DNA of 64,000 nt, from sequence record OR062946.1. One strand, given 5' to 3'. The DNA is from Escherichia phage 310Ecol104PP. Positions within the stretch are counted from its first letter, which is position 1. Every line of letters starts with the position of its first letter. This document shows, piece after piece, positions 36,471-47,969 of this stretch. The notes beneath the pieces were generated by a model that was not told the DNA's origin, ran no database searches, and was given only the letters and a program-made list of their open reading frames with translations. Made by a program: the position numbers and the translations under genes.

Positions 36471-36478
36471 TATAAATA
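36471..36478 (+). promoter_or_regulatory. late promoter of gene 34
   Basis: TATAAATA 35 nt upstream of the gene 34 ATG. Confidence 0.6.
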
Positions 36479-36512: not shown

Positions 36513-39500
36513 ATGGCCGAGATTAAAAGAAAGTTCAGAGCAGAAGATGGTCTGGACGCAGGTGGTGATAAAATAATCAACGTAGCTTTAGCTGATCGTA
36601 CCGTAGGAACTGACGGTGTTAACGTTGATTACTTAATTCAAGAAAACACAGTTCAACAATATGATCCAACTCGTGGATATTTAAAAGATTTTGTAATCAT
36701 TTATGATAACCGCTTTTGGGCTGCTATAAATGATATTCCAAAACCAGCAGGAGCTTTTAATAGCGGACGCTGGAGAGCATTACGTACGGACGCAAACTGG
36801 ATTACGGTTTCATCTGGTTCATATCAATTAAAATCCGGTGAAGCTATTTCGGTTAATACTGCAGCTGGAAATGACATCACGTTTACTTTACCGTCTTCTC
36901 CAATTGATGGTGATACTATCGTTCTCCAAGATATTGGAGGAAAACCTGGAGTTAACCAAGTTTTAATTGTAGCTTCAGTGCAAAGTATTGTAAACTTTAG
37001 AGGTGAACAGGTACGTTCAGTACTAATGACTCATCCAAAGTCACAGCTAGTTTTATTTTTTAGTAATCGTCTGTGGCAAATGTATGTTGCTGATTATAGT
37101 AGAGAAGCTATAGTTGTAACACCAGCGAATACCTATCAAGCACAATCCAACGATTTTATCGTACGTAGATTTACTTCTGCTGCACCAATTAATGTCAAAC
37201 TTCCAAGATTTGCTAATCATGGCGATATTATTAATTTCGTTGATTTGGATAAATTAAATCCACTTTATCATACAATTGTTACTACATACGATGAAACGAC
37301 TTCAGTACAAGAAGTTGGAACTCATTCCATTGAAGGCCGTACAACGATTGACGGTTTCTTGATGTTTGATGATAATGAGAAATTGTGGAGATTGTTTGAC
37401 GGGGATAGTAAAGCGCGTTTACGCATTATAACGACTAATTCTAATATTCGTCCAAATGAAGAAGTTATGGTATTTGGTGCGAATAACGGAACAATTCAAA
37501 CAATTGAGCTTCAGCTTCCAACTAATATTTCTGTTGGTGATACTGTTAAAATTTCCATGAATTACATGAGAAAAGGACAAACAGTTAAAATCAAAGCTGC
37601 TGATGAAGATAAAATTGCTTCTTCAGTTCAATTGCTGCAATTCCCAAAACGCTCAGAATATCCACCTGAAGCTGAATGGGTTACAGTTCAAGAATTAGTT
37701 TTTAACGGTGAAACTAATTATGTTCCAGTTTTGGAGCTTGCTTACATAGAAGATTCTGATGGAAAATATTGGGTTGTACAGCAAAACGTTCCAACTGTAG
37801 AAAGAGTAGATTCTTTAAATGATTCTACTAGAGCAAGATTAGGCGTAATTGCTTTAGCTACACAAGCTCAAGCTAACGTCGATTTAGAAAATTCTCCACA
37901 AAAAGAATTAGCAATTACTCCAGAAACGTTAGCTAATCGTACTGCTACAGAAACTCGTAGAGGTATTGCAAGAATAGCAACTACTGCTCAAGTAAATCAG
38001 AACACCACATTCTCTTTTGCTGACGATATTATCGTCACTCCTAAAAAGCTGAATGAAAGAACTGCTACTGAAACTCGCAGAGGTGTCGCAGAAATTGCTA
38101 CGCAGCAAGAAACTAATACAGGTACTGATGATACTACAATCATCACTCCTAAAAAGCTTCAAGCTCGCCAAGGTTCTGAGTCATTATCTGGTATTGTAAC
38201 CTTTGTATCTACTGCAGGCGCTACTCCAGCTTCTAGCCGTGAATTAAATGGTACGAATGTTTATAATAAAAACACTAATAATTTAGTTGTTTCACCTAAA
38301 GCTTTGGATCAGTATAAAGCTACTCCAACACAACAAGGTGCAGTAATTTTAGCAGTTGAAAGTGAAGTAATTGCTGGACAAAGTCAGCAAGGATGGGCAA
38401 ATGCTGTTGTAACGCCAGAAACGTTACATAAAAAAACATCAACTGATGGAAGAATTGGTTTAATTGAAATTGCTACGCAAAGTGAAGTTAATACAGGAAC
38501 TGATTATACTCGTGCAGTCACTCCTAAAACTTTAAATGACCGTAAAGCAACTGAAAGTTTAAGTGGTATAGCTGAAATTGCTACACAGGTTGAATTCGAC
38601 GCAGGCGTCGACGATACTCGTATCTCTACACCATTAAAAATTAAAACTAGATTTAATAGTACTGATCGTACTTCTGTTGTTGCTCTATCTGGATTAGTTG
38701 AATCAGGAACTCTCTGGGACCATTATACACTTAATATTCTTGAAGCAAATGAGACACAGCGTGGTACACTTCGTGTAGCTACACAGGTCGAAGCTGCTGC
38801 AGGAACATTAGATAATGTTTTAATAACTCCTAAAAAGCTTTTAGGTACTAAATCTACCGAATCGCAAGAAGGTGTTATTAAAGTTGCAACTCAGTCTGAA
38901 ACTGTGACTGGAACGTCAGCAAATACTGCTGTATCTCCAAAAAATTTAAAATGGATTGTGCAGAGTGAACCTACTTGGGCGGCTACTACTGCGATAAGAG
39001 GTTTTGTTAAAACTTCATCTGGTTCAATTACATTCGTTGGTAATGATACAGTCGGTTCTACCCAAGATTTAGAACTGTATGAGAAAAATAGCTATGCGGT
39101 ATCACCATATGAATTAAACCGTGTATTAGCAAATTATTTGCCGTTAAAAGCAAAAGCTGCTGATACAAATTTATTGGATGGTCTAGATTCATCTCAGTTC
39201 ATTCGTAGGGATATTGCACAGACGGTTAATGGTTCACTAACCTTAACCCAACAAACGAATCTGAGTGCCCCTCTTGTATCATCTAGTACTGCTACGTTTG
39301 GTGGATCAGTTTCGGCAAATAGTACATTAACTATTTCTAACGCTGGAACAGCAACTCGTCTGATTTTTGAAAAAGGACCTCAGACTGGAACTAACCCAGC
39401 ACAGACGATGACTATCAGAGTTTGGGGAAATCAGTTTGGCGGCGGATCAGATACAACACGTTCTACTGTATTTGAAGTTGGTGATGAAACATCTAATCAC

Positions 39501-40382
39501 TTTTATTCTCAACGTAATAAAGCTGGGAATATAACGTTTAGCATTAATGGTACTGTGATGCCAATAAATGTTAACGCTTCAGGCACGTTAAATGCGAATG
39601 GTGTTGCAACATTTGGTCGTTCAGTTACAGCCAATGGTGAATTCATTAGCAAGTCTGCAAATGCTTTCAGAGCAATTAGTGGTGATTACGGATTCTTTAT
39701 TCGCAATGATGCTGCTAATACCTATTTTATGCTTACTGCATCTGGTGATCAGACTGGCGGATTTAATGGATTACGTCCTTTAGCTATTAATAATGCATCT
39801 GGTCAGGTTACGATTGGTGAAGGCTTAATCATTGCCAAAGGTGCTACTATAAATTCAGGTGGTTTAACTGTTAACTCGAGAATTCGTTCTCAGGGTACTA
39901 AAACATCTGATTTATACACCCGTGCGCCAACATCTGATACTGTAGGATTCTGGTCAATCGATATTAACGATTCAGCCACTTATAACCAGTTCCCGGGTTA
40001 TTTTAAAATGGTTGAAAAAACTAATGAAGTGACTGGACTTCCATACTTAGAGCGTGGTGAAGAAGTTAAATCTCCTGGTACATTGACTCAGTTTGGTAAT
40101 ACACTTGATTCGCTTTACCAAGATTGGATTACTTATCCAACGACACCAGAAGCGCGTACCACTCGCTGGACACGCACATGGCAGAAAACCAAAAACTCTT
40201 GGTCAAGTTTTGTTCAGGTATTTGACGGAGGTAACCCTCCTCAACCGTCTGATATCGGTGCTTTACCATCTGATAATGCTACAATGGGGAATCTTACTAT
40301 TCGTGACTTCTTACGAATTGGTAATGTTCGCATTGTTCCTGACCCAGTAAATAAAACGGTTAAATTTGAATGGGTTGAATAA
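36513..40382 (+). CDS. 34: long tail fibre proximal subunit gp34
   Basis: 1289-aa ORF with about six tandem ~40-aa repeats (…TPKKL..R.ATE..RGV.EIATQ…). Confidence 0.95.
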   Translation: MAEIKRKFRAEDGLDAGGDKIINVALADRTVGTDGVNVDYLIQENTVQQYDPTRGYLKDFVIIYDNRFWAAINDIPKPAGAFNSGRWRALRTDANWITVSSGSYQLKSGEAISVNTAAGNDITFTLPSSPIDGDTIVLQDIGGKPGVNQVLIVASVQSIVNFRGEQVRSVLMTHPKSQLVLFFSNRLWQMYVADYSREAIVVTPANTYQAQSNDFIVRRFTSAAPINVKLPRFANHGDIINFVDLDKLNPLYHTIVTTYDETTSVQEVGTHSIEGRTTIDGFLMFDDNEKLWRLFDGDSKARLRIITTNSNIRPNEEVMVFGANNGTIQTIELQLPTNISVGDTVKISMNYMRKGQTVKIKAADEDKIASSVQLLQFPKRSEYPPEAEWVTVQELVFNGETNYVPVLELAYIEDSDGKYWVVQQNVPTVERVDSLNDSTRARLGVIALATQAQANVDLENSPQKELAITPETLANRTATETRRGIARIATTAQVNQNTTFSFADDIIVTPKKLNERTATETRRGVAEIATQQETNTGTDDTTIITPKKLQARQGSESLSGIVTFVSTAGATPASSRELNGTNVYNKNTNNLVVSPKALDQYKATPTQQGAVILAVESEVIAGQSQQGWANAVVTPETLHKKTSTDGRIGLIEIATQSEVNTGTDYTRAVTPKTLNDRKATESLSGIAEIATQVEFDAGVDDTRISTPLKIKTRFNSTDRTSVVALSGLVESGTLWDHYTLNILEANETQRGTLRVATQVEAAAGTLDNVLITPKKLLGTKSTESQEGVIKVATQSETVTGTSANTAVSPKNLKWIVQSEPTWAATTAIRGFVKTSSGSITFVGNDTVGSTQDLELYEKNSYAVSPYELNRVLANYLPLKAKAADTNLLDGLDSSQFIRRDIAQTVNGSLTLTQQTNLSAPLVSSSTATFGGSVSANSTLTISNAGTATRLIFEKGPQTGTNPAQTMTIRVWGNQFGGGSDTTRSTVFEVGDETSNHFYSQRNKAGNITFSINGTVMPINVNASGTLNANGVATFGRSVTANGEFISKSANAFRAISGDYGFFIRNDAANTYFMLTASGDQTGGFNGLRPLAINNASGQVTIGEGLIIAKGATINSGGLTVNSRIRSQGTKTSDLYTRAPTSDTVGFWSIDINDSATYNQFPGYFKMVEKTNEVTGLPYLERGEEVKSPGTLTQFGNTLDSLYQDWITYPTTPEARTTRWTRTWQKTKNSWSSFVQVFDGGNPPQPSDIGALPSDNATMGNLTIRDFLRIGNVRIVPDPVNKTVKFEWVE

Positions 40383-40390
40383 GAGGTATT

Positions 40391-41509
40391 ATGGAAAAAT
40401 TTATGGCAGAGTTTGGACAAGGATATGTCCAAACGCCATTTTTATCGGAAAGCAATTCAGTAAGATACAAAATAAGTATAGCGGGTTCTTGCCCGCTTTC
40501 TACTGCAGGACCACCATATGTTAAATTTCAGGATAATCCTGTAGGAAGTCAAACATTTAGCGCAGGACTTCATTTAAGAGTTTTTGACCCTTCCACCGGA
40601 GCATTAGTTGATAGTAAGTCATATGCTTTTTCGACTTCAAATGATACTACATCAGCTGCCTTTGTTAGTTTCATGAATTCTATTTCAAGCAATAGACTTG
40701 TTGCTATATTAACTAACGGAAAGGTTAATTTTCCTCCTGAAGTAGCATCTTGGTTAAGAACCGCCGGAACGTCTGCTTTTCCATCTGACTCTGTATTGTC
40801 AAGATTCGACGTATCATATGCTGCTTTTTATACTTCTTCTAAAAGAGCTATTGCATTAGAGCATGTTAAACTGAGTAATAGAAAAAGTACAGATGATTAT
40901 CAAACTATTTTAGATGTTGTATTTGACAGTTTAGAAGACGTCGGAGCTACCGGGTTTCCAAGAAGAACGTATGAAAGCGTTGAACAATTCATGTCAGCGG
41001 TTGGTGGAACTAATAACGAAATTGCGCGTCTACCGACTTCAGCTGCTATAAGTAAATTATCTGATTATAATTTAATTCCTGGTGATGTTCTTTATCTTAA
41101 AGCTCAGTTATATGCTGATGCTGATTTACTTGCTCTTGGAACTACAAATATATCTATCCGTTTTTATAATGCATCTAACGGATATATTTCTTCAACACAG
41201 GCTGAATTTACTGGGCAAGCTGGGTCTTGGGAATTAAAGGAAGATTATGTAGTTGTTCCAGAAAACGCAGTAGGATTTACGATATATGCACAGAGAACTG
41301 CACAAGCTGGCCAAGGTGGCATGAGAAATTTAAGCTTTTCTGAAGTATCAAGAAACGGCGGTATTTCAAAACCTGCTGAATTTGGCGTCAATGGTATTCG
41401 TGTTAATTATATCTGTGAATCTGCTTCACCTCCGGATATAATGGTACTTCCTACGCAAGCATCGTCTAAAACTGGTAAAGTGTTTGGGCAAGAATTTAGA
41501 GAAGTATAA
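40391..41509 (+). CDS. 35: long tail fibre hinge gp35
   Basis: 372-aa ORF, size and order match T4. Confidence 0.9.
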   Translation: MEKFMAEFGQGYVQTPFLSESNSVRYKISIAGSCPLSTAGPPYVKFQDNPVGSQTFSAGLHLRVFDPSTGALVDSKSYAFSTSNDTTSAAFVSFMNSISSNRLVAILTNGKVNFPPEVASWLRTAGTSAFPSDSVLSRFDVSYAAFYTSSKRAIALEHVKLSNRKSTDDYQTILDVVFDSLEDVGATGFPRRTYESVEQFMSAVGGTNNEIARLPTSAAISKLSDYNLIPGDVLYLKAQLYADADLLALGTTNISIRFYNASNGYISSTQAEFTGQAGSWELKEDYVVVPENAVGFTIYAQRTAQAGQGGMRNLSFSEVSRNGGISKPAEFGVNGIRVNYICESASPPDIMVLPTQASSKTGKVFGQEFREV

Positions 41510-41540: not shown

Positions 41541-41548
41541 TATAAATA
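41541..41548 (+). promoter_or_regulatory. late promoter of genes 36-37
   Basis: TATAAATA 24 nt upstream of the gene 36 ATG. Confidence 0.6.
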
Positions 41549-41571: not shown

Positions 41572-42261
41572 ATGGCTGATTTAAAAGTAGGTTCAACAAC
41601 TGGAGGCTCTGTCATTTGGCATCAAGGAAATTTTCCATTGAATCCAGCCGGTGACGATGTACTCTATAAATCATTTAAAATATATTCAGAATATAATAAA
41701 CCACAAGCTGCTGATAACGATTTCGTTTCTAAAGCTAACGGTGGCACAAAGTCTCAGGGTTTCCAAAAAGAAGTAGAATTTAGAGAAGGCGTTAAGATTT
41801 CTGCAACGTTTTCTGGCGGTTCAGACCTGAACGGGTTATATTCTGGCAATGGAGATGGAGCTTCCAGAGAAAAAGCTAACATGGATTTACGTTCATGGTA
41901 CGGCATTGGTATTTGGAACACATGTACGGGTGATGGGATCCAGGGACGCACAATCTGGTTTAATGCCAGGCGTGGTACAGTTGAAACAGTTGGCGATATT
42001 GTTTCAGACCGACAAGTTATTTCTAATGCTTCAGGACCGACCGGCCCAGCACACTTAACTCGTAAAGATTATGTTGATGGAGCAATAAATACTGTTACAG
42101 CAAATGCGAACTCTAGAGTGCTACGGTCTGGTGACACCATGACAGGTAATTTAACAGCGCCAAACTTTTTCTCGCAGAATCCTGCATCTCAACCTTCACA
42201 TGTTCCACGATTTGACCAAATCGTAATTAAGGATTCTGTACAAGATTTCGGCTATTATTAA
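41572..42261 (+). CDS. 36: long tail fibre distal connector gp36
   Basis: 229-aa ORF directly upstream of gene 37. Confidence 0.85.
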
Positions 42262-42269
42262 GAGGACTT

Positions 42270-45200
42270 ATGGCTACTTTAAAACAAATACAATTTAAAA
42301 GAAGCAAAACCGCAGGTGCACGTCCTGCTGCTTCAGTATTAGCCGAAGGTGAATTGGCTATAAACTTAAAAGATAGAACAATTTTTACTAAAGATGATTC
42401 AGGAAATATCATCGATTTAAGCATTTCTGCTGGTGGTAATATCAGTGGAAATGTAACTATTGATGGAACTTTACGCGTCAATGGACCAATAAACAATTTT
42501 GGAAATTTTTCCACAAGTGGTACTATTACGGCAAGTAATATTGTTTCTGCTACAGTATTCAGATCAACATCCGGTTCATTTTATACAAGAGCAATAAATG
42601 ATACTGCAAATGCCCATCTTTGGTTTGAAAATACAAATGGCTCAGAACGTGGCGTTTTATATTCAAAACCGCAGTCTGAAAATGAAGGCGTAATTACAAT
42701 GCGTGTTCGTCAAGGAACCGCTGCGGGAGCTCAAAATTCAGAATTTCATTTCATTTCTACTGATGGCGGTATCTTCCAGGCACGCAAATTAACTGCTTTA
42801 ACTTCTATTAGTACACCAACTATTAGTGTTAATTTAATTAATCATGATTCTAAAGCCTTTGGACAATACGATTCACAATCATTAGTTCAGTATGTTTATC
42901 CTGGAACCGGTGAAACAAATGGTGTAAACTATCTTCGTAAAGTTCGAGCTAAATCAGGTGGCACTATGTGGCATGAGCTTTGTACTGCTCAGACTGGCCA
43001 GGCTGATGAAATGTCTTGGTGGACAGGTAATACTCCATCATCTAAACAATATGGCATTCGTAATGACGGACGAATGGCAGGCCGTAATAGCCTTGCATTA
43101 GGTACATTCACTACAAATTTCCCGTCTAGTGATTATGGCAACGTCGGTGTAATGGGCGATAAATATCTTGTTCTCGGTGACACTGTAACTGGCTTGTCAT
43201 ACAAAAAAACTGGTGTATTTGATCTAGTTGGCGGTGGATATTCTGTTGCTTCTATTACTCCTGACAGTTTCCGTAGTACTCGTAAAGGTATATTTGGTCG
43301 TTCCGAGGACCAAGGCACCACATGGATTATGCCTGGCACTAATGCCGCTTTCTTGTCTGTTCAAACGCAAGCTGATAATAACAATGCTGGAGACGGCCAG
43401 ACGCATATTGGGTACAATGCTGGCGGTAAAATGAGTCATTATTTCCGCGGTAAAGGCAAAACTAATATTAATACTCAGGAAGGTGTAGACGTTAACCCGG
43501 GTATATTGAAGTTAACCACCGGCGGTGAAAGTATTAGCTTTAATGCCGCAACTGGAAGTATTAATTCTACATTAGCTTTTCGTCTTAATAAAGGCATAAT
43601 TATTGATGGACCTGATAATCAGGGATTCCAGTTTAACGCCCCGACGGCTGCAGATGGTACTAGAAGTATATACTGGAACAGTGGTACTCGCGCAGGTCAA
43701 AACAAAAGCCCTGTTACAGTTAAAGTGTGGGGTAATTCATTTAACGCATCGGGCGATCGTGCTCGTGAAACGGTTTTTGAAGTAGCTGATGGGCAAGGTT
43801 TCCATTTTTATTCTCAACGTGTAGCTCCTGCGCCTGGTTCTACCGTCGGACCTATTCAATTTCGAGTTAATGGTGGTTTATTAACTTCTGGTGGTATTAC
43901 ATCATCTGGTTCTATTGTTACTGAATCAAGTTTAGTTGCCAATAATGGCATGTCAGTAAATGGTCAGGCTAAATTTGGCGGAACAGCAAACGCACTGAGA
44001 ATTTGGAACGCTGAATACGGTGTTATTTTCCGTCGTTCTGAAAGTAACTTTTATATTATTCCAACCAATCAAAATGAAGGCGAAAGTGGAGACATTCACA
44101 GCTCTTTAAGACCTGTGAGAATAGGATTAAACGATGGCATGGTTGGGTTAGGAAGAGATTCTTTTATAGTAGATCAAAATAATGCTTTAACTACGATAAA
44201 CAGTAACTCTCGCATTAATGCCAACTTTAGAATGCAATTAGGACAAAATGCTTATATAGATATTGAGGCTTCTGATGGAGTTCGCCCAACAGGTTGTGGT
44301 TCATTTGCATCTCAGAATGACGTAAACGTCAGAGCTCCAATTTATATGAATATAGAGCGTACTGCTACTTCTGAATACATTCCTATTGTTAAACAACGGT
44401 ATGTAAAAGGTGATAGTACTTATTCTATTGGTACATTGATTTCTCAGGGAGACTTCCGCGTTCATTATCACCAGGGTACTAGTACTACCGGTACTGATTT
44501 AAGCTGGGAATTCCGTCGCAATGGTGATTTCCGCGCGGCAGGTAAAATTATTGCCGGTGCTGCTACTTTTGGCACTGATGGTAATATCACGGGCGGTTCA
44601 GGAAACTTTGCTAACCTGAATACCACATTAAATCGTAAGGTAAATTCCGGATTTGTAACATACGGTGCAACGGCCGGATGGTACAAATTCGCTACAGTAA
44701 CGATGCCACAATCTACTTCTACTGTTTCATTTACTATAACTGGTGGTAAAGGATTTAATACCGGACTGTTTACACAATGTGCTATAACAGAAATTGTTCT
44801 TCGTACTGGTAATGACCGCCCAGCAGGTTTAAACGCTGTGATGTATACCAGAACAGCTGCAGGTCTTACTGATATTGCTGTAGTTAATACCTCAGGAAAT
44901 ACATATGATATCTATGTTGAATCTGGTACTTATGCCAATCAATTAGCTTATACATGGCATACAGTTGATAATGCTACAGTAGAAGTTATCGGCGCTTTTG
45001 GTCCTACTCAAGACCCGGTAGATTCTTTGCCGGCTGATTATGTTAAAGGCCAAGTAGCTAACATGCTTAACAACCTGGTAAACACAGGTAAAGCAAAACG
45101 TTATGTAGCAGAATCTGAAATTGCTATTAATAACCAAACGGGTCTTCGTATTACGAGTAATTCTGATAGATCAGGTTCTAATTCCGTTTTATTTCGAAAT

Positions 45201-46193
45201 GACGGTGGAAGCTTCTATATTTTACTGACTGACAAAAACTCTTCAGACGGCGATAATAAAGCAACTGAAGGCGATTGGAATGGAAAACGACCGTTTTCAA
45301 TCGATATGACTGCTGGTACTGTTCGTCTTGGCGAAAATACTTCTTTTGATAAAGATATTACTATTAATGGAAACATTAATTCACGAGTTAAAGCTGCCGG
45401 ACAATGGAGTGTTAGCTTTTCTGCTATTTCAGATGTGACTCGCGACAATTCTGCATTCTTAGCGAATACGGGTGGCATTTCCAAGACAAGTCAAGCTTAT
45501 TACCCGCTATTTTCTGGATACAGTTTTTTAACTGACGCGGGTTATCGACAATCGTTTGAATTTGGATGGTTAGGTGTTTCTGGTACTTGGCGCCAAGGCA
45601 TTATTCGCATGCGTGGTGACAACGCATCGGGGCAACAGGCTCGTTGGACTTTTGATATGGATGGAACATTTTATGCTCCTATACTATCATGCGGATCTGC
45701 GAGAGCATTCGGTGTCAATACATCAAATGGTCTCGGTGGAAACAGTATAACATTTGGTGATAGCGATACCGGTATTAAGCAAAACGGCGATGGATTATTA
45801 GACATTTATGCGAATGGTGTGCAAACGTTCCGTTTCCAGAACGGTGATTTATACTCATATAAAAATATAAATGCCCCAAACGTTTATATTCGTTCTGATA
45901 TTCGCTTAAAATCTAATTTCAAACCTATCGAAAATGCACTTGATAAAGTTGAAAAACTCAATGGTGTCATTTATGATAAAGCTGAATATATCGGTGGAGA
46001 GGCAATTGAAACTGAAGCGGGTATTGTGGCTCAAACGTTACAAGACGTTTTACCAGAAGCCGTCCGTGAAACAGAAGACAGCAAGGGTAATAAAATACTC
46101 ACTGTTTCTTCTCAAGCCCAGATTGCTCTTCTGGTTGAAGCTGTGAAAACGCTTTCTTCTCGTGTAAAAGAACTTGAATCTAAACTTATGTAA
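42270..46193 (+). CDS. 37: long tail fibre distal subunit gp37 with C-terminal intramolecular-chaperone-like domain
   Basis: 1307-aa ORF; conserved N-terminus [16 protein letters not shown]; C-terminal ~110 aa resemble the peptidase S74 self-cleaving chaperone domain (SDIRLKSN…[12 protein letters not shown]…). Confidence 0.9.
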
Positions 46194-46194
46194 A

Positions 46195-46212
46195 AGAGGG
46201 CTTCGGCCCTCT
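46195..46212 (+). terminator. C(UUCG)G hairpin after gene 37
   Basis: AGAGGGC-ttcg-GCCCTCT inverted repeat. Confidence 0.5.
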
Positions 46213-46224
46213 AAGGATTTTTAA

Positions 46225-47007
46225 ATGGCAATTGTAGGTGTTCCTGGCTGGATTGGCGAATCTGCCGTGAATGAAACTGGACAACGTTGGATGGATGCTG
46301 CGATGAGAGAAGTTCGTGTTTCAGTTCCCGGTTGGATGAGCTCAATGGCTGGGCAATCTAAAGAGATTCATTATAGCATTGGTGCTAGTAACTCTTACAA
46401 TAAAGACACTCTTATTAACTGGATGAAAGCACAAGGATCTACTCCGGTAGTAATTACTATCACGGGTAATATTGTTTCCCAATCTACTGGCGTTCCTTGT
46501 CTTGACTTCCCTAGCTCGTTAACTAATGCATATGTTACGTTGATCATTAACTCCGGTGTGACTGTCTACGGTCGCGGTGGCAATGGTGGTAGTAACGCTG
46601 CTGGTGCTGCTGGTGGTAACGCAATCAATAACGCTATCGGTACACGTCTACGAATTACAAATAACGGTGCAATCGCTGGAGGTGGCGGCGGCGGTGGCGG
46701 CGGTAACAGGGGTAAACTAATATTTGGTGGTGGCGGTGGTCGCCCATTCGGTGCTGGTGGGTCTTCCTCTCATATGAGTTCCGGTGCAACTGCTGGTACT
46801 ATTTCCGCTCCTGGTAAAGGATCTGTTGGTGAGGGGTCTCTTAGTGCATATACAGGCGGTTCGGGTGGTAATGTCGGTGCTGCTGGAGGAAGATGTAATA
46901 TTCGCGGTCAAGGATCAGAATATAACGGCGGTGCGGCCGGTAAAGCTGTTACTGGTAATGCTCCAACTTGGACTAAGGTTGGTACAATATATGGTTCAAG
47001 AGTATAA
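46225..47007 (+). CDS. 38: receptor-binding adhesin gp38 (T2-type)
   Basis: 260-aa ORF with glycine-rich motifs (GGGGGGGGGN, GGGGRPFGAGG) separating variable segments. Confidence 0.8.
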   Translation: MAIVGVPGWIGESAVNETGQRWMDAAMREVRVSVPGWMSSMAGQSKEIHYSIGASNSYNKDTLINWMKAQGSTPVVITITGNIVSQSTGVPCLDFPSSLTNAYVTLIINSGVTVYGRGGNGGSNAAGAAGGNAINNAIGTRLRITNNGAIAGGGGGGGGGNRGKLIFGGGGGRPFGAGGSSSHMSSGATAGTISAPGKGSVGEGSLSAYTGGSGGNVGAAGGRCNIRGQGSEYNGGAAGKAVTGNAPTWTKVGTIYGSRV

Positions 47008-47039: not shown

Positions 47040-47696
47040 ATGGCAGCACCTAGAATATCATTTTCGCCCTCTGATATTCTATTTGGTGTTCTAGATCGCT
47101 TGTTCAAAGATAACGCTACCGGGAAAGTTCTTGCTTCCCGGGTAGCTGTCGTAATTCTTTTATTTATGATGGCGATTGTTTGGTATAGGGGAGATAGTTT
47201 CTTTGAGTACTATAAGCAATCAAAGTATGAAACATACAGTGAAATTATTGAAAAGGAAAGAAATGCACGCTTTGAATCTGTCGCCCTGGAACAACTCCAG
47301 ATAGTTCATATATCATCTGAGGCAGACTTTAGTGCGGTGTATTCTTTCCGCCCTAAAAACTTAAACTATTTTGTTGATATTATAGCATACGAAGGAAGAT
47401 TACCTTCAACAATAACTGAAAAATCACTTGGAGGATATCCTGTTGATAAAACTATGGATGAATATATAGTTCATTTAAATGGACGTCATTATTATTCTGA
47501 CTCAAAATTTGCTTTTTTACCAACTAAAAAGCCTACTCCCGAAATAAACTACATGTACAGTTGTCCATATTTTAATTTGGATAATATCTATGCTGGAACG
47601 ATAACCATGTACTGGTATAGAAATGATCATATAAGTAATGACCGCCTTGAATCAATATGCGCTCAGGCGGCCAGAATATTAGGAAGGGCTAAATAA
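47040..47696 (+). CDS. t: holin T
   Basis: 218-aa ORF with one N-terminal transmembrane segment and large periplasmic domain. Confidence 0.9.
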   Translation: MAAPRISFSPSDILFGVLDRLFKDNATGKVLASRVAVVILLFMMAIVWYRGDSFFEYYKQSKYETYSEIIEKERNARFESVALEQLQIVHISSEADFSAVYSFRPKNLNYFVDIIAYEGRLPSTITEKSLGGYPVDKTMDEYIVHLNGRHYYSDSKFAFLPTKKPTPEINYMYSCPYFNLDNIYAGTITMYWYRNDHISNDRLESICAQAARILGRAK

Positions 47697-47969
47697 TTAT
47701 TTGTTCGTATACATCTCTAGATATCGATATACACCCTCAAAACCCTCGTTGAATTCGTCGATGAGGGTTTTCTTATCTTCTTGAGTTAATTCAGAAACAA
47801 TTTTACGGAATGAATTCTGATTTAATTTTCTACCTTCATGCGTTACTCCAATCTCATTCAGAAATGCAATAAAATTAGCACGATTTTCAACAATATCTTC
47901 TCTGGAAAATTTAATCAAAATAGACGCAACAGTAATAATTTCACGAACTGTATCAATGTTTTTATTCAT
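47697..47969 (-). CDS. asiA: anti-sigma-70 factor AsiA
   Basis: 90-aa ORF, length and position match T4 AsiA; convergent with t. Confidence 0.9.
   Translation of the reverse strand: MNKNIDTVREIITVASILIKFSREDIVENRANFIAFLNEIGVTHEGRKLNQNSFRKIVSELTQEDKKTLIDEFNEGFEGVYRYLEMYTNK

Follow-up and report, generated by a model that had tools for sequence, protein, structure and literature searches.

A probable T2-type gp37-gp38 host-range module with a mosaic adhesin gene in Escherichia phage 310Ecol104PP

Understanding of the T2-type host-range module dates from the 1980s, and its structure was solved in 2018. In T2 and T6, gp37 is reported to undergo C-terminal proteolytic cleavage and then to be capped by gp38 (Trojet 2011, PMC3157838, listing Drexler 1986). 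A solved structure of this type is the gp37(3)-gp38 complex of Salmonella phage S16 (PDB 6F45; Dunne et al. 2018), in which gp37 and gp38 dock 3:1 (PMC7917993, PMC6851490), gp37 is cut at DLNVS^SDRRIKK (PMC7917993) and the tryptophans of the gp38 attachment domain plug into gp37 (PMC6851490). Domains of the S74 type aid trimerisation and then leave by autoproteolysis (PMC7289586); the Ser-x4-Lys dyad is common to the endosialidase-type S74 domains of K1F endoNF, T5 pb1 and phi29 gp12 and to MYRF. The gp38 adhesins are built of glycine-rich motifs alternating with hypervariable segments (Trojet 2011, PMC3157838). Exchange at the conserved glycine-rich motifs was proposed earlier (Tetart 1996/1998, as cited in Trojet 2011, PMC3157838).

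Phage 310Ecol104PP was published as a component of a mastitis cocktail, and its authors listed gp37 and gp38 as receptor binders (PMC11510089). The window analysed here was a 64,000-nucleotide stretch of its sequence record, OR062946.1. This Tequatrovirus very probably carries a canonical T2-type host-range module, a self-cleaving gp37 capped by a glycine-rich gp38. That interpretation is established T-even biology and was already known; the sharp mosaic structure of g38 is what the present analysis adds. Domain content, catalytic residues, homologies and the mosaic were computed directly. Features are listed in Table 1.

Table 1. Coordinates of features of the g36-g38 region in the window
Feature	Position	Strand	Remarks
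T4-type late promoter consensus TATAAATA	41541-41548	+	exact match, 24 nt before g36
g37, long tail fibre distal subunit precursor	42270-46193	+	1307 aa, 140.0 kDa
'NVYIR', gp37 aa 1204-1208	45879-45893	+	predicted last strand of mature fibre
Scissile bond Arg1208/Ser1209, predicted	45891-45896	+	HMMER alignment to 6F45_A
Intramolecular chaperone domain, gp37 aa 1209-1307	45894-46190	+	99 aa; predicted release after trimerisation
Peptidase_S74 core, gp37 aa 1209-1266	45894-46067	+	Pfam
Ser1209, predicted nucleophile	45894-45896	+	first residue of 'SDIRLKSN'
Lys1214, Ser-Lys dyad partner	45909-45911	+	five residues past Ser1209
Intercistronic hairpin AGAGGGC-UUCG-GCCCUCU	46195-46212	+	UUCG tetraloop on a 7-bp stem
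Shine-Dalgarno-like AAGGA	46213-46217	+	seven nt ahead of the g38 ATG
g38, monomeric tail-fibre-tip adhesin	46225-47007	+	260 aa
gp38 N-terminal attachment domain, aa 1-42	46225-46350	+	Gp38_N; Tequatrovirus/T2-type sequence
RB49/JSE/Bas45-type block, aa 45-223	46357-46892	+	beta-helix, GRM1-4, receptor loops A-D; putative OmpA-type specificity determinant
Glycine-rich motif 1 (GRM1), GRGGNGG, aa 116-122	46570-46590	+	
Nine-glycine run, aa 152-160	46678-46704	+	mixed GGA/GGT/GGC codons
Five-glycine run, aa 168-172	46726-46740	+	inside GGGGGRPFGAGG
Glycine-rich motif 4 (GRM4), GGSGGNVGAAGGR, aa 211-223	46855-46893	+	
HVS4 / receptor loop E, CNIRGQGSEY, aa 224-233	46894-46923	+	
Glycine-rich motif 5, GGAAG, aa 235-239	46927-46941	+	invariant

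Gene order and the gp37 chaperone domain

The two open reading frames have the lengths given in an earlier sequence-only reading, and both protein strings that it quoted are present. GenBank entry WLY86435.1 (phage 310Ecol104PP) is an exact match of gp37. Gene order is g34-g35-g36-g37-g38-t, as in T2 (AP018813), whose gp37 and gp38 are 1341 and 262 residues long. Genes g36, g37 and g38 are probably expressed late, and the promoter at 41541 likely starts their transcript, the sole argument being its position and the role being taken from knowledge of T4 late promoters; the consensus TATAAATA occurs 10 times in the window, which is not above the chance expectation. The g38 start lies 31 nt past the g37 stop codon. 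The intercistronic hairpin was flagged as a terminator by a scan, but its fold was unexceptional against shuffles (z=-1.26) and g38 needs expression downstream, and the terminator reading was rejected; at most the hairpin would be an RNA-stability or processing-type element. Minus-strand open reading frames of 50-89 aa at 45215-46911 were set aside as unsupported, lying inside two well-supported plus-strand genes.

Peptidase_S74 (PF13884) matched gp37 aa 1209-1266 over the whole profile (1-58 of 58; E=3e-15; 56.7 bits vs a cut-off of 22), at the extreme C-terminus of the protein (aa 1209-1307 of 1307). As sequence matches, the Pfam matches of gp37 and gp38 are far beyond chance. Among sequences in the PDB, the gp37 tip matched S16 gp37 (6F45_A, E=1.9e-10), by which homology gp37 is predicted to be trimeric, and 7DC3, the autoprocessing domain of MYRF (E=0.002), where Ser and Lys are aligned. 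In the HMMER alignment to 6F45_A, Ser1209 falls on the Ser of S16 'SDRRIK', so that S^SDRRIK of S16 aligns with R^SDIRLK; Lys1214 aligns with the corresponding Lys in S16 and in MYRF 7DC3. Over its last ~150 residues gp37 hardly differs from T2 gp37 (90% identity over the C-terminal 200 aa, one residue different in the chaperone), whereas the shaft is largely different. An S74-type chaperone at this end had been proposed in the sequence-only reading, and it is borne out by the near-identity to T2 and by a catalytic Ser and Lys in place. The length of ~110 residues given for it does not stand, the predicted released piece being 99 aa (Ser1209-Met1307; computed mass 10.7 kDa for aa 1210-1307), nor does the start at 45880, which precedes the Ser1209 codon by 14 nt and is one base out of frame. 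The S16 chaperone has 113 aa.

Trimerisation of gp37 would be helped by this C-terminal chaperone (aa 1209-1307). After fibre folding, the Ser1209/Lys1214 dyad would cut between Arg1208 and Ser1209, and the 99-residue chaperone would leave, exposing a flat trimeric tip ending ...NVYIR. This is the processing-then-capping logic of T2 (PMC3157838). 'NVYIR' was aligned to S16 'DLNVS' and fPS 'DVYIR' (phage counterparts from PMC7917993) and, by homology, would form the gp38 docking surface once gp37 is cut. It is highly unlikely that the S74-like domain instead stays on the mature fibre in a structural or binding role and that cleavage is absent or incomplete. Dyads are degenerate in some S74-containing proteins, but in gp37 the Ser-x4-Lys dyad of 'SDIRLK' is intact with the canonical five-residue spacing, and both residues are invariant across T2, T6, Bas45 and 236Ecol005PP. 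Moreover, the domain is nearly identical in T2 gp37, for which proteolytic cleavage is reported (PMC3157838), and docking of gp38 needs the surface covered by the chaperone (PMC7917993). Autoproteolytic release of gp37 from its chaperone is what homology with T2/T6 and S16 predicts. In K1F and T5 the chaperone completes a self-sufficient spike or fibre, whereas in 310Ecol104PP it tops a T-even long tail fibre and, once removed, would leave a site where a separate adhesin docks.

Domains and glycine-rich motifs of gp38

WLY86436.1, labelled 'hypothetical protein' in GenBank, is an exact match of gp38; the name ought to be tail-fibre adhesin. Two Pfam families cover the protein, Gp38_N (PF21721) at aa 1-42 (E=4.4e-18) and GP38 (PF05268) at aa 47-260 (E=1.8e-72, profile 1-218 of 218), and aa 8-258 matched S16 gp38 (6F45_D, PDB sequence match, E=3.4e-50). 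The assignment to T2/S16-type adhesins made in the sequence-only reading is upheld by these Pfam and 6F45_D matches, and the T4-type chaperone is unrelated. As in S16 gp38, three domains are predicted, namely a helical attachment domain with three Trp, a beta-helix and a polyglycine-II sandwich. S16 gp38 is more distant in sequence, with many substitutions, and its loop E is five residues shorter; S16 infects Salmonella, whereas 310Ecol104PP infects E. coli.

Trp9, Trp22 and Trp37 align with the three S16 gp38 Trp. By homology, one gp38 would dock on the gp37 tip via these residues of the N-terminal helical domain. The remainder would fold as the beta-helix and the polyglycine-II sandwich made from the glycine-rich motifs, from which five variable loops would face the cell. 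That gp38 is a T4-style assembly chaperone, helping gp37 to fold and absent from the virion while gp37 binds the receptor, is hardly credible. The gene does occupy the position of T4 g38, directly downstream of g37, and several database records of homologues are labelled 'distal long tail fiber assembly catalyst' or 'tail assembly protein'. However, only adhesin families were matched in Pfam, over full-length gp38, alongside the S16 adhesin structure, and gp37 has an intramolecular chaperone of its own in the S74 domain, unlike T4 gp37, which lacks that domain and has an extended receptor-binding needle. T4 gp38 is very different or unrelated in sequence, according to PMC6851490 and PMC3157838, and in related phages a gp38 swap alone switches the receptor (bioRxiv 10.64898/2026.04.02.716166). 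The T4-type chaperone class was therefore rejected for gp38, which is treated below as the adhesin at the fibre tip.

Of the gp38 residues 23% are glycine, a share that rises to 33% in aa 117-260, and this composition raises local GC to 0.48-0.51, vs roughly 0.30-0.43 elsewhere in the profiled stretch. Invariant Gly blocks among six phages were found at aa 116-121, 152-158, 168-172, 221-222 and 235-239, separated by variable segments; in the first, G116, R117, G118, G119, N120 and G121 are all invariant. The amino acid limits of the numbered motifs were set by us from the conserved glycine blocks. GGGGGGGGGN corresponds to aa 152-161, and the nine-Gly run within it aligns to polyglycine-II helix 3 of S16, '151-GGGGGGGG-158' (S16 helix from PMC6851490). 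Loop E was assigned by alignment to PP01 gp38 and from the loop list in PMC12892980.

Mosaic structure of g38

Codons 1-44 and 226-260 of g38 are of Tequatrovirus backbone type (JK1-like), and codons 45-225 are of Krischvirus RB49/JSE and Bas45 type. JSE-type informative sites numbered 126 of 136 inside the block at 46357-46892 and 0 of 130 outside it (permutation p<=0.003). In the attachment domain, nucleotide identity is 94-98% to T2, JK1 and 236Ecol005PP (94% to T2 when the initial 132 nt of g38 are compared) and 58-59% to RB49/JSE over the same 132 nt; RB49/JSE carry Tyr at the Trp37 position. Within the block, RB49 is 100% identical over 46357-46523 and JSE over 46721-46860; Bas45 (Escherichia phage PaulHMueller) is identical at 46684-46844 and 86-87% identical in DNA across 46357-46683. 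At the protein level, gp38 is 97% identical to that of Bas45 (8 differences), 88-89% to the OmpA-type gp38 of RB49/JSE and 69% to that of T2, the body of T2 gp38 being about 48-67% identical in DNA. RB49/JSE also differ at the gp38 C-terminal end, and in Krischvirus g38 does not adjoin g37. The gp37 shaft of Bas45 is about 70% identical.

A conserved adaptor cassette at ~45705-46356, running from the gp37 tip and chaperone through the intergenic region to the gp38 attachment domain, has kept its Tequatrovirus/T2 type. The gp38 body (codons 45-225) has been exchanged with the lineage of Krischvirus RB49/JSE. Loop E and the gp38 C-terminus are still of backbone (T6/JK1) type. Describing 46357-46892 as 'imported from Krischvirus' would presuppose which way the transfer went, and the data do not fix this.

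Junction J2 lies inside the nine-Gly GGN run, with Bas45 identity beginning at 46684, and junction J3 at 46893-46900, in two codons (Cys-Asn) right after GRM4. The third is in a non-glycine Ser-Lys-Glu linker. The crossover giving the chimeric loop set was placed at the Cys-Asn codons of J3. The sequence-only reading had called the GGN runs likely recombination hotspots, which holds only in part: it agrees with the first of these junctions and nearly with the second, and fails for the linker. Junction intervals are biased towards conserved motifs, which hold few informative sites, and three junctions, a single one within a Gly run and another next to a motif, are anecdotal; crossover enrichment in glycine motifs is not claimed.

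A reading of the GGN runs as mainly slippage-prone simple repeats, giving length (phase or host-range) variation and not serving as sites of homologous crossover, is exceedingly improbable. TRF found short imperfect arrays of 3, 6, 9 and 12 nt at 46597-46615 and 46677-46703, and seven GGY-rich 18-nt direct-repeat copies are spread over the glycine motifs. Against this, Gly-run length is conserved: G152-G158 and G168-G172 are invariant in six phages of two genera, and all nine glycines of the nine-Gly run are invariant across nine sequences. The mixed codons keep exact repeats at 12 nt or shorter, and phages differ from one another by substitutions and exchanged segments, the indels falling in the loops and none in the Gly runs. 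Slippage was rejected on the invariant run lengths and the mixed codons.

Receptor loops and significance

The gp38 of JK38, which is JK1-like, targets Tsx, whereas phage PST uses Tsx as well as OmpA. T2 uses FadL and Bas45 is dependent on OmpA (PMC8594841); OmpA is also the receptor of RB49 (bioRxiv 10.64898/2026.04.02.716166). For 310Ecol104PP, in contrast to T2, the link is to OmpA. LPS core, OmpA and PhoE were predicted as receptors by its authors, and a sequenced host resistant to it carried ompA and wbbD mutations and was uncomplemented (PMC11510089). The ompA mutation and the gp38 swaps in related phages lend indirect support to gp38 as a putative virion protein that sets the receptor. 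OmpA as the primary receptor is supported, since loops A-D are identical to those of OmpA-dependent Bas45; this falls short of proof because ompA and wbbD were both mutated in an uncomplemented mutant. The receptor panel of the sequence-only reading (OmpC/OmpF/FadL/Tsx) omits OmpA, which is supported for 310Ecol104PP and its closest gp38 relatives, and receptor tests on this phage should include it.

Four of the predicted receptor loops (A-D) are OmpA-type and the fifth (E) is T6/Tsx-type, a combination unique among the 6 members of the 90%-identity cluster of gp38. Loop E, CNIRGQGSEY, is of the T6/JK1/IME339 (Tsx-lineage) type, whereas Bas45, RB49 and JSE have CNTQGNGTEY. It differs from these OmpA-type relatives at 4 of 10 positions, and fine specificity could therefore differ from that of Bas45. 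It is possible, albeit doubtful, that this chimera of OmpA-type loops A-D and a Tsx-lineage loop E has a receptor range foreign to both parent types. If so, it might tolerate more OmpA loop variants or use a second porin as an auxiliary, and would represent natural tuning of specificity by single-loop exchange.

The importance of the module is small beyond correct annotation. The g38 mosaic is a natural sub-gene exchange between Tequatrovirus and Krischvirus adhesins and could guide loop-level engineering.

Fibre gene cluster and predicted gp37 processing

The T-even long-tail-fibre cluster was found complete in the window by ORF and Pfam analysis, with all genes on the + strand (see table); its flanks are ~97% identical to Tequatrovirus teqdroes-like phages. 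Exact protein look-up identified the distal fibre subunit gp37 as WLY86435.1 and gp38 as WLY86436.1 of Escherichia phage 310Ecol104PP, and the gp37 and gp38 strings quoted in the sequence-only reading were both found. WLY86436.1, a full-length tail-fibre adhesin, is named 'hypothetical protein' in the phage's GenBank record. Homologues elsewhere carry one or other wrong label, 'assembly catalyst' or 'tail assembly protein', depending on the record. In the hinge connector gp35, aa 59-128 match Pfam ILEI (interleukin-like EMT inducer/FAM3-type; E=1.6e-8, above the curated cut-off), an unexpected label for a phage fibre hinge.

The entire 58-position Peptidase_S74 profile (Pfam) matched gp37 aa 1209-1266 (E=3e-15). 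The gp37 C-terminus also aligned with the gp37 tip of Salmonella phage S16 (PDB 6F45, E=1.9e-10) and with the MYRF autoprocessing domain (7DC3). S16 gp37 is reported to be cut at DLNVS^SDRRIKK, and a cut at DVYIR^SDGRLKI is predicted for fPS phages (PMC7917993). HMMER aligned the corresponding gp37 segment with this motif, and the scissile bond is therefore predicted to be Arg1208|Ser1209, with Lys1214 as putative dyad partner. Such a cut would give a mature gp37 of 1208 aa (~129 kDa) and a released chaperone of 99 aa (~10.8 kDa). The S74-type C-terminus proposed earlier was thus recovered, but with slightly fewer residues than the ~110 claimed. The last 200 residues of gp37 are 90% identical to T2 gp37, with one difference within the chaperone, and we infer cleavage of 310Ecol104PP gp37 by homology. 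For T2 and T6, C-terminal proteolysis of gp37 followed by capping with gp38 has been reported (PMC3157838, which lists Drexler 1986).

The T4 late-promoter consensus TATAAATA was located directly upstream of g36 (41541-41548) and g34 (36471-36478); it occurs 10 times in the window, a count not above chance expectation. None was found from g36 through the end of g38, which suggests co-transcription of g36-g37-g38. The stretch from the g37 stop codon to the Shine-Dalgarno sequence of g38 contains a hairpin at 46195-46212 (AGAGGGC-UUCG-GCCCUCU), whose perfect 7-bp stem is capped by a UUCG tetraloop. This hairpin was flagged as terminator-like, yet g38 follows directly downstream, and its fold energy was unexceptional against shuffles (z=-1.26). 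A terminator-like 14-bp hairpin (47739-47771) was also seen ~40 nt beyond the holin stop codon, inside the 5' part of minus-strand ORF 47697-47969. This ORF is an asiA homologue by position; its counterpart in Bas45 (Escherichia phage PaulHMueller) is called anti-sigma70 protein.

Features of the tail-fibre region. Loop positions, from alignment to PP01 gp38 (PDB 9V85) and the loop list in PMC12892980, are approximate and rest on an inferred numbering offset.
Feature	Nucleotides	Strand	Length or residues	Remarks
g34	36513-40382	+	1289 aa	
g35	40391-41509	+	372 aa	
g36	41572-42261	+	229 aa	
g37	42270-46193	+	1307 aa	
g38	46225-47007	+	260 aa	
holin t	47040-47696	+	218 aa	
Glycine run	46678-46704		aa 152-160	
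Glycine run	46726-46740		aa 168-172	
Putative receptor loop A			~aa 122-127	
Putative receptor loop B			~aa 161-166	
Putative receptor loop C			~aa 180-185	
Putative receptor loop D			~aa 199-209	
Putative receptor loop E			~aa 225-232	
g38 segment	46225-46356			94-98% to T2, JK1, 236Ecol005PP; 58-59% to RB49/JSE
g38 segment	46357-46523			RB49 100% (167 nt, zero mismatch); Bas45 86%
g38 segment	46524-46683			RB49/JSE ~91%
g38 segment	46684-46892			Identical runs: Bas45 161 nt (46684-46844), JSE 140 nt (46721-46860)
g38 segment	46893-47007			JK1 98% (identical 46909 onward); RB49/JSE 76%, Bas45 89%
Junction J1	46357-46364			Codons Ser45-Glu47, invariant linker following attachment domain
Junction J2	46684			Additional change point against Bas45, within nine-glycine run
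Junction J3	46893-46900			Cys-Asn codons directly after GRM4

gp38 architecture and probable receptor

Assignment of gp38 as a T2-type adhesin was supported by Pfam matches to Gp38_N (aa 1-42, E=4.4e-18) and GP38 (aa 47-260, E=1.8e-72) and by the S16 adhesin (6F45_D, E=3.4e-50). Trp9, Trp22 and Trp37 line up with all three S16 tryptophans, which insert into pockets of the gp37 tip (PMC6851490). Glycine makes up 33% of aa 117-260, and GC rises locally to 0.48-0.51 in the g38 region because of GGN codons. Conserved glycine blocks (aa 116-122, 152-160, 168-179, 211-223 and 235-239) alternate with variable segments, the architecture of glycine-rich motifs (GRM) and hypervariable segments of Trojet 2011; the limits of numbered GRMs were assigned by us from these blocks.

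OmpA is the best-supported primary receptor, because of gp38 kinship, the phage authors' prediction and a mutation in a resistant host. The gp38 sequence shares 97% identity with its counterpart in Bas45, a phage whose OmpA dependence was backed by complementation (PMC8594841), and 88-89% with those of RB49/JSE; the RB49 receptor is OmpA (bioRxiv 10.64898/2026.04.02.716166). WLY86436.1 and WLY86435.1 were listed among the receptor-binding proteins of 310Ecol104PP, with LPS core, OmpA and PhoE predicted, and ompA and wbbD mutations were found in resistant host 265PP2018 (PMC11510089). The receptor mutants proposed earlier for mapping left out OmpA.

Mosaic structure of g38

The window and nine phages were aligned with MAFFT and mismatch maps were read site by site, dividing g38 into five segments. 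A maximum-chi-square test with JK1 (backbone type) and JSE as references assigned 72/72 informative sites up to 46356 to JK1, 126/136 at 46365-46892 to JSE, and 58/58 from 46901 onward again to JK1 (chi-square 229, permutation p<=0.003). The region ~45705-46356, which runs from the gp37 tip and chaperone through the intergenic region to the gp38 attachment domain, is 92-95% identical to T2-like Tequatroviruses. This agrees with a report that subtypes of the gp37 C-terminus and the gp38 N-terminus pair in lock-and-key fashion (PMC3157838). As a result, putative loops A-D belong to the OmpA type and loop E (CNIRGQGSEY) to the T6/JK1 type; Tsx is the target of the JK1-like gp38 found in JK38 (bioRxiv 10.64898/2026.04.02.716166). 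No second case of this combination was found in the 90%-identity cluster (n=6). The run shared with RB49 without mismatch implies that part of g38 was exchanged recently across genera. In both Krischvirus genomes, g38 lies amid small hypothetical genes, away from g37 (RB49, genome L002, 4486-5262; JSE, genome L009, 1486-2262). The gp37 shaft (42459-45700) is also mosaic: IME339 shares 96% identity over 42270-44089, the best identity for whole g37 is 94.5% (Kelasse), and Bas45 and T2 reach only 70-76% in the shaft despite conserved N- and C-terminal ends of gp37.

GGN runs had been proposed as recombination hotspots, and crossover at conserved glycine-rich motifs had been suggested before (Tetart 1996/1998, cited in Trojet 2011, PMC3157838). 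J2 lies inside such a run and J3 adjoins a glycine motif, but J1 falls in a conserved non-glycine linker. Junction intervals are biased toward conserved motifs because these lack informative sites, and exchange within GRM1-GRM5 occurred in 0/14 selected recombinants of Trojet's RB5 x RB32/33 crosses (PMC3157838). The three junctions would fit exchange wherever the sequence is locally conserved and do not demonstrate a specific role for GGN runs. Slippage at these runs is unlikely, since glycine-run lengths are invariant and exact repeats are <=12 nt.

gp37-gp38 is a textbook T2-type host-range module; this observation of the sequence-only reading was confirmed and its interpretation supported. 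310Ecol104PP was already published and its receptor indicated. What the analysis adds is limited to an exact position for the predicted cut, the mosaic within g38 of a Krischvirus-like core with a Tsx-type loop E, and the annotation correction.
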